IMG/VR virus record: IMGVR_UViG_2778261567_000021
From: a virus
Taxonomy: Duplodnaviria; Heunggongvirae; Uroviricota; Caudoviricetes
Reading direction: 5' to 3' (one strand)
Length of the DNA: 6,394 nucleotides
Position 1 is the first letter of the stretch. Each line of letters opens with the position of its first letter. The position numbers were made by a program, and so were the translations under genes. The notes beneath the pieces are model-generated. The model worked only from the letters and a program-made list of their open reading frames with translations, did no database searches and was not told the DNA's origin. This document shows positions 3,377 through 6,394 of the stretch, piece by piece.

Positions 3377-3609
3377 AACCCCCCCCCATTTTCACAATCA
3401 GCAATCAGGATAGCTTTGGCCTCATTCAGCGCCATATCAGCACTAAGTTGCATAACCGCCAGCGAATGAGGAACGAAAGCCCCTGCATATTCTGTTTCAC
3501 TGGTGGCGTGCTTATGCGCCCTGTCAGCAATAACAGAAATATCAATAAGCGCGTGCATCAGCGTAGTGAGCGCGGCGGCTGCTGCGTCCGGTGTGGTTTT
3601 ATTGCACAT
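3349..3609 (-). CDS. Hypothetical protein (86 aa); possibly the N-terminal part of a longer protein split at a homopolymer
   Basis: ATG at 3609 with a strong SD (AGGAGG 6 nt upstream, lying inside the preceding ORF). The C-terminus (…ENGGGLCVMIVLIP) is encoded across the G9 run and overlaps the next ORF by 28 nt in another frame. Confidence 0.5.
   Translation of the reverse strand: MCNKTTPDAAAAALTTLMHALIDISVIADRAHKHATSETEYAGAFVPHSLAVMQLSADMALNEAKAILIADCENGGGLCVMIVLIP
3379..3387. repeat. Homopolymeric tract C9 (G9 on the coding strand) at the junction of two ORFs
   Basis: Nine consecutive C at 3379-3387. The minus-strand ORFs 3349..3609 and 3155..3376 differ by one frame across this tract. 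Confidence 0.9.
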
Positions 3610-3805
3610 GGCACACCTCCTGACGAATACGGGCGGCGAATACCATCACGCAGCCAGCCGGGGATTGCAGGCGTGCTTCCTGTTCGCTGGCGGCCTCAAT
3701 GGTAATCACGCGCGGTTGTGCCGTGCTCAGGGCGATAAAACGCCAGATGTATTTATTCAGGTTGTGCGAGTCCCGCCCTTGCGGGTGTGTGGTATGATTT
3801 AACAT
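3599..3805 (-). CDS. Hypothetical protein (68 aa), first gene of the minus-strand operon
   Basis: The ORF track shows a 305-aa ORF 3599..4516, but only the 3' part is credible. The internal ATG at 3805 is preceded by GAGGT 5 nt upstream (minus strand CGAGGTAGCT-ATG). Product MLNHTTHPQGRDSHNLNKYIWRFIALSTAQPRVITIEAASEQEARLQSPAGCVMVFAARIRQEVCHVQ. Its stop overlaps the start of the next ORF by 11 nt. Confidence 0.5.
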   Translation of the reverse strand: MLNHTTHPQGRDSHNLNKYIWRFIALSTAQPRVITIEAASEQEARLQSPAGCVMVFAARIRQEVCHVQ

Positions 3806-3901
3806 AGCTACCTCGATACGCTTTCTATCGTTGGTGGTTAGAAGCCCGGTTAGTGTTAGCGCACTGCCGGGTTTCGTCGTTTCTGCACCTTGCATCAACA
3901 A

Positions 3902-3955
3902 GGTGTTGAACACCAATTTAAGCCCTGGTGTTAAACACGTCAAGTGTTGAACACT
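3902..3955. promoter_or_regulatory. Three palindromic operator-like sites GTGTT-N-AACAC in a divergent promoter region
   Basis: GGTGTTGAACACC (3902-3914, 13-bp palindrome), GTGTTAAACAC (3928-3938) and AGTGTTGAACACT (3943-3955, 13-bp palindrome). An extra AGTGTT half-site lies near 3851-3856. They sit between divergently oriented genes (minus-strand ORF starting at 3805, plus-strand RHH ORF starting at 4005). Confidence 0.55.
3916..3943 (-). promoter_or_regulatory. Candidate sigma70 promoter for the minus-strand replication operon
   Basis: On the minus strand: TTGACG (3943..3938), 16-nt spacer containing operator 2, TTAAAT (3921..3916). It lies back-to-back with the plus-strand promoter. Assigned by eye only. 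Confidence 0.3.
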
Positions 3956-3975
3956 TATTTTTTTTCCTGCATACT
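3947..3975 (+). promoter_or_regulatory. Candidate sigma70 promoter for the RHH cassette
   Basis: TTGAAC (3947-3952), 17-nt spacer, CATACT (3970-3975). The -35 element lies inside operator 3. Assigned by eye only. Confidence 0.3.
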
Positions 3976-4004
3976 GCATTTGTTTTTTGTAAGGGGTACA
4001 CAAC

Positions 4005-4184
4005 ATGGCGACAAAAGCAGTAAACGCAAAATCACAAACAGTTGCGGCAAGGGTTCCGCATGAAGTTATGAACAATGTTGAGGCGGTAAAAATGCCTGGT
4101 GAAAGTACAGGGCAGTTTGTAACAGCAGCATTAAAGCGAGAAGTTGAATACCGCCAGCGTCGCAAGGCCAAAGAGCAGGAATAA
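4005..4184 (+). CDS. Small ribbon-helix-helix (CopG/Arc/MetJ-like) DNA-binding protein, 59 aa
   Basis: Absent from the ORF track, presumably for being under the length cut-off. ATG at 4005 is preceded by AAGGGG at 3991-3996 (8-nt spacing); stop TAA at 4182-4184. Product MATKAVNAKSQTVAARVPHEVMNNVEAVKMPGESTGQFVTAALKREVEYRQRRKAKEQE shows the RHH signature: a beta-strand (AARVPHEV), helix, G-x-S/T turn (GESTGQF), and second helix (VTAALKREV). It lies immediately downstream of the palindromic operators. Confidence 0.55.
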   Translation: MATKAVNAKSQTVAARVPHEVMNNVEAVKMPGESTGQFVTAALKREVEYRQRRKAKEQE

Positions 4185-4241
4185 CCATCACCAGCGCCGT
4201 GGTGTAAGGTATTACGGCGCATTGCTATGCAGGACAACACA

Positions 4242-4415
4242 ATGACCGATAAAGAATTGACCAAAACATTATCACCGGCACGGAAAAGACGGCGCAGAAA
4301 GATAGAGCATGAATCAGAAAGATTCGCGCCATGTGCTTTTGCCCTTGAGCAATTCCTTAAAGAGTACAGGGAAACGCGCCCATTGCAGGTATGGCAACGA
4401 ACTGAACCAGACTGA
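4242..4415 (+). CDS. Hypothetical small basic protein (57 aa; KRRRRK motif)
   Basis: ORF track gives 4227..4415. The second in-frame ATG at 4242 is preferred because AGGA at 4230-4233 lies 8 nt upstream. Product MTDKELTKTLSPARKRRRRKIEHESERFAPCAFALEQFLKEYRETRPLQVWQRTEPD. It follows the RHH ORF on the same strand and is closed by the terminator at 4480-4508. No family recognised. Confidence 0.4.
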   Translation: MTDKELTKTLSPARKRRRRKIEHESERFAPCAFALEQFLKEYRETRPLQVWQRTEPD

Positions 4416-4479
4416 TTGCATTGCCCACCAGCCTGATAGCGGCTATCATCCCCGTGCTTATGTTTAGTGTTTTCCCATT

Positions 4480-4508
4480 GGCGACCGCCCCCGGTCGCCT
4501 TTGTTTTA
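4480..4508 (+). terminator. Rho-independent terminator of the plus-strand small-ORF cassette
   Basis: Perfect 8-bp GC-rich stem GGCGACCG (4480-4487) / CGGTCGCC (4492-4499) with a 4-nt loop CCCC, followed by TTTGTTTTA on the plus strand. On the minus strand the hairpin is followed by AAUGGGAAA, so it is mainly unidirectional. Confidence 0.65.
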
Positions 4509-4526
4509 TGTGTCATATGCTCCCCT

Positions 4527-4736
4527 TTACACTGCCTTACCTGAATTAATGCGATCCCGGCTTTTAACCCATTCCATAACCTCGGACAGCAGCCACCCTA
4601 CAGAACGACCGCCCAGATTAAGACGTGACGGAAAGCTCCCTTTTTTCTCCAGTTCGTAGCGTGTAGTGCGACACACTCCAGTTAACTTACGACATTCATC
4701 CTCACGGATTACGCGATCTTCATTTATTTCACGCAT
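4527..4736 (-). CDS. alpA: AlpA-family (Vis/Xis-like) transcriptional regulator / excisionase-type HTH protein, 69 aa
   Basis: The 69-aa product MREINEDRVIREDECRKLTGVCRTTRYELEKKGSFPSRLNLGGRSVGWLLSEVMEWVKSRDRINSGKAV matches the AlpA pattern (…TG.sR.T.Y…P….lG.rsVGW…E…W, about 70 aa). The ORF track extends it to 4823 with a GTG start (98 aa), but the extension is AT-rich and AlpA proteins are about 70 aa, so the ATG at 4736 is preferred. It sits directly downstream of int in the same orientation. Confidence 0.75.
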   Translation of the reverse strand: MREINEDRVIREDECRKLTGVCRTTRYELEKKGSFPSRLNLGGRSVGWLLSEVMEWVKSRDRINSGKAV

Positions 4737-5155
4737 ACAAAAACCTACATAAAAATTACGTATATAAACTTTTCTCTTAGCTGTAGATATATGAGATCGG
4801 ATATTACTTAGATTCTTTTTCACCTCTTAAATTAAAAACACAACCATGCTAAAGGCTTTGTTCGCTAAGGTTCGTAGAAGCTCGTTAGTGTTTAAAATCG
4901 TGTCACGAGTTTTTAAGCGACGCAACAAAAAATGTCGTCATTTGGCATGACACCTTAATTACCTCATTAAAAACAAATAGATAAACTATCAGGTGTTGGA
5001 ACAATCAAGAAACAGAGAATAAGAACTCAGAAGAAGACATTTCAATTTTTTTCGATAGTTGACACATATAAAGAGAAGATATTTGCAGATATTCCCCGAT
5101 ATTCTAAGATCTATTCACGGCTGTAATCTCTTAAAGAAAAAACAGCCGTAATTTG

Positions 5156-6394
5156 TCAAGAATTTTGGGGGTAAATTCGCGGGGTCATAACAACGATTTT
5201 TTCATCATTGTTCTGGAGAAGCTCGAGACGGTCTACCCATAGATTAAGAGCATCACGTTTTGCATCAAGGTAGCGGGAGTGGTTATAGACTCGTTGCATC
5301 CCTGGCATCTGGTGGGCTGTAAGCTGCTCGACAATATGCGGATCCACGCCTAAATCGTTCAGCATGGTTGTAAATGTGTGCCGGATATCGTGTAACGTCC
5401 AGGGGGCTTGATTAATTCGTCTGTGCGCTGTTCTTCCGTACTCTGCTACCGAAGATTGTCCTTTCAGTTCACCAAGCAATAAGCCTGAGTGTCTGTTCTG
5501 CTCCACCAGTTGCGTGACGAACGGCAAAATGCTTTCCGGTATTGGCCTGAATATGGCGACCTTCGTTTTGCTGTGCTCCTTCGGTACTGTCCAGAGCATT
5601 TCTTTAAAATCCCACTCCTGCACCTCAGAGCGCCTTAGCTCAGTGGTACGGCATCCAAAAACAATCAGGAGGCGAATTAGGGCGCTGTAGTATGGCGGGA
5701 ATATTTTGTCATCCAGGGCGCGGAGTAATTCCCCAAGCTCCTTATTTGTTAGTACGCGCTCGCTCACTTCTGCTTTTTTTCCCACATCACCGACAACCAT
5801 ATCATCAAGAACGTTGCTGATTGCGTATCGTCGTTTTCGGCAGTACTTAAGCGCCTGTTTGCATACCTGTAGCAAAAATCCGGCAGATACAGGGCTTCGC
5901 TTTGCCATCTGGTCAAAACATGCCAACCAGTGCCGTAGCTCGCATTTTTCCAACGGCAAAGCGCCAATCTGGCTGATTATGTGTTTATTGATCCGGCTTT
6001 TCAGTGATTCGTAGTCAGTGCGCTTTTCCTTTGCATACGATTCAAGCCAGTAAGTGAGCGCTTCCTTAACTGTCACGGGGGCTAACGCATCCTGTACAGC
6101 ACGATTAAGCTCATAGCGCGGATTTTTCCCCTCAGCCAGCCAGGCGCGACACTGTGCTGCTTTTTCCCTGGCTGCTTTCAGGCTCAGATCGGGATAATTG
6201 CCCAGTCTCAGACGTTCCGGTGATACCTGCCTACCAGTTCCGGCCCTGTAAGTGAAATACCAGGTTAACAGGCCGCTGGTGGAATGTCTTACGCTAAGAT
6301 TGCCACCGTCATTAAAAAAGGCGTTTTTTGTGGTTGGTGATCCGCTTAATTTTCGTAAAAGAGTGTCGCTAAGTCTATGAATTGCGCTGCTCAT
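5156..6394 (-). CDS. int: Tyrosine site-specific integrase, P4 family (412 aa)
   Basis: ORF of 412 aa. The C-terminal catalytic region carries the HxxR box (HDIRHTF) and the tyrosine nucleophile motif (RVYNHSRY). The N-terminal region (GNLSVRHSTSGLLTWYFTYR...) resembles the arm-binding domain of P4/CP4-57-type integrases, recalled from memory. The ATG sits exactly at the window edge, so an upstream extension cannot be excluded. Confidence 0.93.
   Translation of the reverse strand: MSSAIHRLSDTLLRKLSGSPTTKNAFFNDGGNLSVRHSTSGLLTWYFTYRAGTGRQVSPERLRLGNYPDLSLKAAREKAAQCRAWLAEGKNPRYELNRAVQDALAPVTVKEALTYWLESYAKEKRTDYESLKSRINKHIISQIGALPLEKCELRHWLACFDQMAKRSPVSAGFLLQVCKQALKYCRKRRYAISNVLDDMVVGDVGKKAEVSERVLTNKELGELLRALDDKIFPPYYSALIRLLIVFGCRTTELRRSEVQEWDFKEMLWTVPKEHSKTKVAIFRPIPESILPFVTQLVEQNRHSGLLLGELKGQSSVAEYGRTAHRRINQAPWTLHDIRHTFTTMLNDLGVDPHIVEQLTAHQMPGMQRVYNHSRYLDAKRDALNLWVDRLELLQNNDEKIVVMTPRIYPQNS

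Follow-up and report, generated by a model that had tools for sequence, protein, structure and literature searches.

A ribbon-helix-helix cassette antisense to an eta-like leader reading frame in a P4-like satellite of Escherichia coli: a proposed immunity operon

Introduction

Satellite phage P4 offers the closest described counterpart to the locus presented here. In its left operon (vis–eta/kil–CI RNA–epsilon–alpha), the eta open reading frame (ORF) is about 199 codons long, begins right after the AlpA-family gene vis and ends as kil. Translation of eta prevents Rho-dependent termination of transcripts from the upstream promoter (PMC10111431). Gram-negative phage-inducible chromosomal islands (PICIs), including the capsid-forming ones (cf-PICIs), have been described as AlpA-controlled. 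No island repressor is named in the cf-PICI paper, and only immunity RNAs are named in PMC10111431. Here, we analyse a two-gene cassette in a 6,394-nucleotide (nt) stretch of Caudoviricetes DNA (IMG/VR record IMGVR_UViG_2778261567_000021; hereafter the window, meaning the whole stretch). The first gene of the cassette encodes a ribbon-helix-helix (RHH) DNA-binding protein and the second, ORF2, a small basic orphan protein. We propose, with moderate confidence, that the cassette is a protein-based maintenance and immunity operon of a P4-like, capsid-forming PICI satellite, that it lies antisense within a translatable eta-like leader, and that it carries ORF2 as cargo.

Other temperate phages also bear on the comparison. 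In the lambda cI-rexAB operon, the exclusion genes are co-transcribed with the repressor gene, and HK022 Nun is an arginine-rich-motif protein made in lysogens. Both Nun and lambda N have arginine-rich N-termini that bind RNA hairpins. In the immI region of P1 (c4 RNA–icd–ant), translation of icd is coupled to downstream expression. Our search of the literature on YlcI/YnfO proteins, on RHH proteins in PICIs and on overlapping antisense genes in satellites yielded no account of the cassette.

Cassette layout and the P4 left operon

The window derives from a chromosomal satellite of E. coli. The corresponding locus of E. coli AR_0077 is 100% identical to window positions 3800–4530 and runs on into the genes for the major capsid, decoration and small-terminase proteins, which identifies the element as being of the capsid-forming PICI type. 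The cassette region was matched in 1645 of 5426 complete E. coli genomes (~30%), including those of O157:H7, O145 and Nissle 1917. Two scans of IMG/VR gave mainly near-identical copies, and a scan of GTDB species representatives gave one locus; sequence diversity was therefore drawn from the E. coli genomes.

All the features that an earlier note on this DNA had described are present. The RHH gene (59 aa) is followed on the same strand by a 57-aa reading frame with its own Shine-Dalgarno (SD) sequence and a strongly basic stretch (KRRRRK, residues 15–20), and a strong intrinsic terminator closes the pair (coordinates in Table 1). In the window and 40 further loci (41 distinct spacer-region sequences), the gap between the two genes measures exactly 57 nt. 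The two genes form a co-oriented unit, RHH first, with its own predicted promoter region and terminator; it is convergent with alpA and divergent from the icd–DUF4222–primase operon. The earlier note overlooked an open and conserved reading frame on the opposite strand.

As in the P4 left operon, an AlpA-family gene, a coupled long ORF and a D5/P4-type primase gene follow one another on one strand. A killer gene of the Kil/Icd family forms the last 65–68 codons of the long ORF and overlaps the next gene, and an internal promoter, in the window a predicted one, lies upstream of kil. P4 Kil scores 76.1 bits (1.6e-21) on the NCBIfam model NF033153, which places it in the same family as the Icd-like protein of the window. 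Two marks of a P4-type nested leader are present: the Kil/Icd C-terminal part has its own start, and its long extension begins directly after an AlpA/Vis-family gene. In a BLASTP comparison, the long ORF matched P4 Eta weakly (E = 1) and solely within the Kil part, so that the relationship to P4 is founded on the family model and on synteny. By this analogy, the window is of the P4 left-operon design. The two systems differ in that P4 eta has no opposite-strand genes and the P4 immunity factor is an RNA, whereas the window embeds an RHH gene, operators, a cargo ORF and a terminator in antisense orientation. The embedded cassette accounts for the greater length of the eta-like ORF, which overlaps two genes and spans 305 codons compared with about 199 in P4. 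No Rfam match to a C4, isrK or CI-type RNA was found in the window at E ≤ 1.

RHH types and their operators

The RHH protein belongs to the YlcI/YnfO family, scoring 59.7 bits (E = 2.1e-16) on NCBIfam model NF041551 against a curated cut-off of 30. A search of PDB sequences returned nothing for it. AlphaFold predicts an extended N-terminus followed by two helices (predicted local distance difference test score, pLDDT, 85), and the model shows the strand-helix-helix topology of about 45 residues expected of the Arc/MetJ/CopG superfamily. Related islands carry at least 13 RHH types, which vary chiefly in the N-terminal strand and first helix and share a conserved C-terminal tail. A second, Arc-like RHH lineage, which scores only 18.7 bits on the YlcI/YnfO model, also precedes ORF2, and a 101-aa form of the protein exists among related islands.

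Three operator-like sites (O1–O3) lie between the RHH gene and icd. The motif GTGTTNAACAC occurs in three copies in the window, all inside 3903–3954, where 0.21 copies would be expected, and none of 200 shuffles reached three. At the equivalent positions of related islands, the repeats change with the N-terminal (beta-strand) type of the RHH protein, and the promoter hexamers stay nearly constant. Type-specific operator triplets were extracted for six RHH types (five of the YlcI/YnfO type and one Arc-like), and further types, judged by eye, follow the same pattern; the repeats of other types include GTGTCAGCCAC, GTGAATCGCAC, and GGTGTATTTCA with its complement TGAAATACACT. The −35 element of the icd promoter (CGTCAA on the plus strand; TTCAA or GTCAA in a few types) is retained in most RHH types. 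Other types have TATACT in place of the cassette −10 hexamer CATACT, followed by the third operator.

Given this covariation between operators and RHH types, we read the RHH protein as a repressor of the kil/replication operon and of itself. It would bind the three type-specific operators, which overlap the promoter of the kil/icd–replication operon as well as its own promoter, so that lytic-type genes would be repressed and the cassette autoregulated. As judged from these sequence patterns, the cassette appears to act mainly in island immunity and repression, through type-specific operators. Diversified RHH proteins with matching operators over a kil/replication promoter would amount to protein-based immunity with many specificity types. 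The likeness to P22 immI (Mnt/Arc) and to the RHH repressors Omega and CopG does not go far: there is only a weak in-register match to the beta-strand and helix A of Arc, no antirepressor gene lies downstream of the RHH gene, and the proposed target is the kil–replication operon of a satellite.

A long form of the RHH protein (101–106 aa) was observed in loci L108, L109, L111, L114 and L116–L118. In its C-terminal part, the shared basic tail is preceded by an additional segment of about 42 conserved residues (GENPLVSSLDALAQVEKIGVKAAEEIGQLVTVAREEL). This segment is without a match in Pfam and may be a domain for oligomerisation or sensing.

The eta-like leader on the minus strand

The eta-like ORF runs antisense to the terminator, ORF2, the spacer, the RHH gene and the promoter region; its last part is the Icd/Kil homologue. 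This minus frame is open over 237–576 codons in 25 of 25 sequences (the window and 24 loci), among them a tandem cassette and the second RHH lineage. No stop codon interrupts it in any of 27 short-RHH, 15 long-RHH and 32 ORF2 variants (74 in total); as a control, the equivalent antisense frame of 52 icd genes contains 131 stops. By chance, the three non-coding pieces of the window would be free of stops with probabilities of 0.028, 0.60 and 0.30, and the two genes, given the encoded proteins, with probabilities of 0.34 (RHH) and 0.72 (ORF2); the product over 13 RHH types is ~1e-7. In most loci, the first ATG of the minus frame lies 5–22 nt past the stop codon of an upstream alpA, AntA or Bro-N gene, or overlaps it. 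The same open frame is found in Salmonella (with a TGATG overlap), Klebsiella and Proteus islands. A stop-free antisense ORF across two genes would be a clean natural case of selection for translatability and not for protein sequence.

The cassette terminator is predicted to be effective on the plus strand only, as the hairpin is followed on the minus strand by AAUGGGAAAAC, which lacks a U-run; alpA is thus left without a terminator of its own. Only 1 of 200 shuffles folds as well as or better than region 4416–4516, and the terminator hairpin is retained in Salmonella islands, where it abuts the eta start. If P4 is a guide, transcription from alpA would proceed antisense through the cassette into kil/icd and the replication genes. 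The long ORF coupled to alpA appears to be kept stop-free across both plus-strand genes, so that ribosomes could follow the polymerase and prevent Rho-dependent termination, as in P4. The RNA antisense to the RHH gene is C-rich and G-poor, with a C/G ratio of up to 2.2, which fits a region where Rho would load when the RNA is untranslated. Antisense read-through would in turn disturb expression of the cassette and so help to flip the switch.

The long minus ORF could also be taken as the sole real gene, encoding a long Icd-like or Bro-network protein, with the RHH gene and ORF2 as mere shadow ORFs. Gene callers often choose the long ORF, and 2149 database clusters of 287–447 aa are named Icd-like, some with N-terminal Bro-N or Ash domains. 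Yet the RHH protein exceeds a curated family threshold and has a confidently predicted RHH fold, it co-varies with the operators, and it is intact in Xenorhabdus despite an interrupted minus frame. Moreover, the plus frame has the lower pN/pS (the ratio of nonsynonymous to synonymous polymorphism), and Pfam gives no match for the part of the minus peptide that covers the cassette. We consider this explanation extremely improbable. A search with PADLOC gave no defence-model match for the RHH protein, ORF2, the Icd-like protein or the long ORF.

RefSeq annotations of this region are in conflict. At window positions 4186–4516 and their equivalents in L001–L003 and L117–L119, the annotation is either an "Icd-like protein" or pseudogene on the minus strand, up to 447 aa long, or a plus-strand YlcI/YnfO gene together with a hypothetical protein. 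In a number of genomes, among them the one identical to the window, the Prokaryotic Genome Annotation Pipeline (PGAP) places a minus-strand "Icd-like" pseudogene over ORF2. A leader ORF overlapping two small plus-strand genes would explain why PGAP disagrees systematically over this region, and both readings are probably partly right.

In two loci, the entire switch (operators, RHH gene, 57-nt spacer, small ORF and terminator) is duplicated in tandem (L113, 1573–2754; L112, 1632–2757). The two copies have different RHH types and enclose a remnant of the icd start region. The first copy carries a divergent ORF2 paralogue of 75 aa, with an acidic N-terminus and the motif FALEDFVDKY. In L113, the minus frame is open across both copies (515 codons).

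ORF2 as probable cargo

All 119 related loci have an unbroken ORF2 that begins with ATG; it occurs in them as 32 distinct nucleotide variants. Indels among the variants are in-frame, and three alternative C-terminal tails all end within 57–67 codons. Database homologues share 65–96% amino acid identity, and in many genomes RefSeq/PGAP lists ORF2 as a hypothetical protein of 57–67 aa. AlphaFold2 predicts a single helix at residues 24–45 and disorder elsewhere. As the earlier note had supposed, the protein falls outside recognised toxin families: it has no match in Pfam, NCBIfam, PADLOC or PDB sequences, and its PHROG match (phrog_21027, 3e-16) is unannotated. A profile search of 1.84 billion representatives returned only ORF2's own small family, namely nine clusters that include a spurious eukaryote-like repeat protein (P0039, 1141 aa). 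This family is tiny and confined to E. coli and Shigella.

Among 16 distinct spacers, neither the SD core of ORF2 (CAGG) nor its ATG varies, while the 8 nt that separate them do. An ATG further upstream, at 4227, is not conserved, which identifies 4242 as the start. The spacer also contains a predicted hairpin whose positions are paired in 94.6% of cells across the 16 spacers. Four changes keep the pairing; all are one-sided changes to G·U, which pair only in plus-strand RNA. As no compensatory double changes were found in the 16 spacers, covariation is not established and the structure stays a predicted one.

The coding signature of ORF2 is clear in one respect and ambiguous in another. Its pN/pS is 0.31 in its own frame and ~1 in the off frames, and 0.40 in the overlapping minus frame; the wobble positions of both strands coincide, so that neither codon periodicity nor pN/pS can separate the two. 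The plus/minus ratio of these values, 0.78, equals that of RHH and icd. Substitutions that are synonymous in one frame only, counted on a spanning tree for the plus and minus frames, yielded 19 versus 19 for ORF2, compared with 21:17 for short RHH, 27:15 for long RHH and 48:26 for icd.

Several observations weigh against the interpretation we prefer. The balanced count of 19 versus 19 leaves protein-level selection on the plus frame of ORF2 unproven. Given the ORF2 peptide, the minus frame is expected to be open 72% of the time, and given the minus peptide, the plus frame is expected to be open 32% of the time. With regard to the leader, the minus frame is not continuous from alpA in Xenorhabdus; in some E. 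coli loci it ends shortly before the icd start, so that the fusion to Kil is not universal; and genuine Bro-N or Ash domains are in some cases fused to the long minus ORF, which may thus be more than a spacer. The promoters are consensus predictions, and the cassette promoter, with a score of 8/12, is below the threshold of the scan.

Some of these points also suit the view that ORF2 is non-coding, and that the segment up to the eta start is a 3′ untranslated part of the RHH mRNA that acts as antisense RNA or as a buffer between convergent transcripts, its conservation and codon-like pattern being imposed by the eta-like ORF on the opposite strand. The balanced substitutions and the minus-frame pN/pS of 0.40 are in its favour, as is the frequent choice of the minus strand by PGAP in this segment. 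In Salmonella islands, which lack ORF2, about 140 nt of non-coding DNA is retained, and the same terminator lies directly next to the eta start. Frameshifted ORF2 variants also exist (P0016, P0037 and P0043). Against it stand the invariant ATG and CAGG amid variable flanks, the plus frame that is open in all 119 loci with its three tails ending in the same narrow range, and the plus/minus pN/pS ratio typical of known genes. The tandem paralogue keeps its ATG at the same 57-nt distance as well as the motif FALE-x-F-x3-Y. A comparison of ORF2 with this paralogue in both frames gave too weak a signal to separate the frames. Finally, where eta overlaps RHH, its amino acid sequence is dictated by the plus-strand gene, and there is no reason why the eta frame should be the constrained one at ORF2. 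Translation of ORF2 is favoured by the constancy of its SD and ATG and by a frame that is open in every locus, and we regard a non-coding segment as unlikely.

The earlier note had likened the pair to a type II toxin–antitoxin (TA) or addiction module. On this view, the island would be stabilised by ORF2 as a small toxin, with the RHH protein as its autoregulating antitoxin. TA modules with RHH antitoxins (CopA_SO, ParD, TacA and HicB) do resemble the cassette in having the RHH gene first, a second gene downstream and probable autoregulation, and in the structure of the DNA-binding domain. The genes of TA pairs usually overlap or nearly so, whereas here they are separated by a 57-nt spacer with a predicted hairpin. 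ORF2, which is modelled as one helix plus disorder and lacks database matches, shows no toxin fold, and the operators extend beyond the cassette promoter to that of the neighbouring icd operon. Nor is the pairing obligate. Two different RHH lineages precede ORF2, and in L031 and L064 the RHH gene is frameshifted and the ORF2 that follows it is intact. Islands of Salmonella, Proteus and Xenorhabdus have the RHH gene at the same position but no ORF2, and an unrelated 84-aa gene occupies the ORF2 position in Klebsiella. The TA reading was thus not borne out, and we rate it as very improbable.

The same distribution bears on a further alternative, in which ORF2 is a core part of the switch, such as a co-repressor of the RHH protein, an antidote to Kil/Icd, or an RNA-binding factor that acts on the eta/kil leader or the spacer hairpin. 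In its favour, ORF2 always follows the RHH gene at a fixed distance, after a conserved hairpin, and would be co-transcribed with it; its arginine-rich N-terminus is of the kind that binds RNA hairpins, and it is conserved independently of RHH type. However, RHH, an eta-like ORF, kil/icd and alpA are all present without ORF2 in Salmonella and Proteus, the two RHH lineages that precede ORF2 differ in their C-termini, and the basic cluster is missing from some ORF2 variants (the L112 type and P0042). We give a core role only a small chance.

The two RHH lineages, the frameshifted RHH genes and the absence or replacement of ORF2 in other genera speak against both a TA pair and a core role, and fit a cargo slot. 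ORF2 is a conserved orphan and is probably translated as accessory cargo. It would be made from the 3′ part of the repressor transcript, during quiescence. As other genera have the switch but lack ORF2, we place ORF2 outside the core switch. "Undescribed effector or regulator", the phrase used in the earlier note, remains fair for ORF2 alone, as the protein has no recognisable family; the cassette as a whole is better read as an immunity operon. Lambda cI-rexAB and HK022 Nun provide a parallel, in that ORF2 lies downstream of the repressor in a transcript expected to be on in quiescence, in a slot that is variable or empty across genera, and has an arginine-rich N-terminus. The parallel is one of position and composition only, with no sequence similarity. 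Our leading guess is that ORF2 targets the helper phage, a competing phage or the host via its basic arm or single helix; as a second choice, it may tune the eta/kil switch.

In Klebsiella (L123 and L124, 2692–2946), the 84-aa gene is acidic and overlaps the RHH stop codon, and the minus frame is open across it (291 codons). This gene suggests a cargo slot downstream of the repressor.

A bolder possibility is a dual-coding convergent switch of an undescribed kind, with the repressor operon antisense in an obligatorily translated leader and with sense and antisense expression mutually exclusive. ORF2 would then represent a new class of arginine-rich single-helix effectors, which either bind helper or satellite RNA in the manner of Nun and N or sense the helper. 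Were this the case, ORF2 would be the missing link in the recognition of lambdoid helpers by Gram-negative PICIs. It is a tentative idea that we think rather improbable.

Other features of the window

The features discussed above and the neighbouring genes are listed in Table 1. Several further small ORFs are also present on the minus strand.

Table 1. Positions of the cassette, the leader ORF, predicted regulatory sites and neighbouring genes in the window
Feature	Position	Strand	Remarks
RHH gene	4005–4184	+	YlcI/YnfO family, 59 aa; proposed island repressor
Intercistronic hairpin (predicted)	4194–4220	+	GCGCCGT ... ACGGCGC; in fixed 57-nt spacer
SD core of ORF2	4230–4233	+	CAGG; invariant in 16 distinct spacers
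ORF2	4242–4415	+	57-aa orphan; basic disordered N-terminus (KRRRRK), one amphipathic helix; core ESERFAPCAFALExFLKEY
Intrinsic terminator of cassette	4480–4508	+	8-bp stem with 7 GC pairs (4480–4499), then TTTGTTTTAT
Putative cassette promoter	3947–3975	+	TTGAAC-17-CATACT; by eye
Operator-like palindrome O1	3902–3914		GGTGTTGAACACC; just downstream of icd promoter −10
Operator-like site O2	3927–3939		GGTGTTAAACACG; in icd promoter spacer, between −35 and −10
Operator-like palindrome O3	3943–3955		AGTGTTGAACACT; overlaps −35 elements of both divergent promoters
Predicted sigma-70 promoter of icd/kil–replication operon	3915–3943	−	TTGACG-17-TAAATT; consensus scan; counterpart of P4 PLE
Eta-like leader ORF	4516–3599	−	305 codons; starts 11 nt after alpA stop; SD GGGAG
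Icd-like gene (P4 Kil homologue)	3599–3805	−	68 aa; NF033153, 3.1e-19, 68.8 bits; nested at 3′ end of eta-like ORF
alpA (P4 vis homologue)	4527–4823	−	PF05930, 4e-16
Integrase gene	5156–6394	−	
DUF4222 gene	2615–2914	−	
D5/P4-type primase gene	864–2618	−	

A candidate cis-antisense small RNA against the icd/kil translation start was observed on the plus strand at 3789–3885. A conserved extended −10 element (TGgTATGAT) lies within icd codons 2–5, with two hairpins and an intrinsic terminator downstream. The stem of this terminator varies among island types yet stays paired, and a T-rich run always follows. The region has a weak SymR-like match in Rfam (32.8 bits, E = 0.0025) that is below the gathering score. 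This RNA could be a functional stand-in, on the opposite strand, for the CI RNA of P4 or the c4 RNA of P1. The locus resembles P1 immI in that an Icd-family gene heads the operon, and differs in having this candidate on the opposite strand and no c4-type RNA on the same strand.

About a dozen repeats of the GGTAGA(C/T)AG type are densely packed in both orientations at 619–853, directly downstream of the primase gene. The array looks like a replication origin with iterons, as reported for PICIs downstream of pri.

A run of nine C at 3379–3387 (nine G on the coding strand) divides a gene into ORFs of 86 and 73 aa, the second of which has its own ATG immediately 3′ of the run. The gene encodes one 154-aa protein in PHROG 2512 and in other genomes. 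In related loci, the run is 7, 8, 9, 10 or 11 nt long (12, 18, 5, 4 and 1 loci, respectively), and only lengths of 7 or 10 give back the fused frame. This variation could be due to slipped-strand phase variation or to homopolymer sequencing error.

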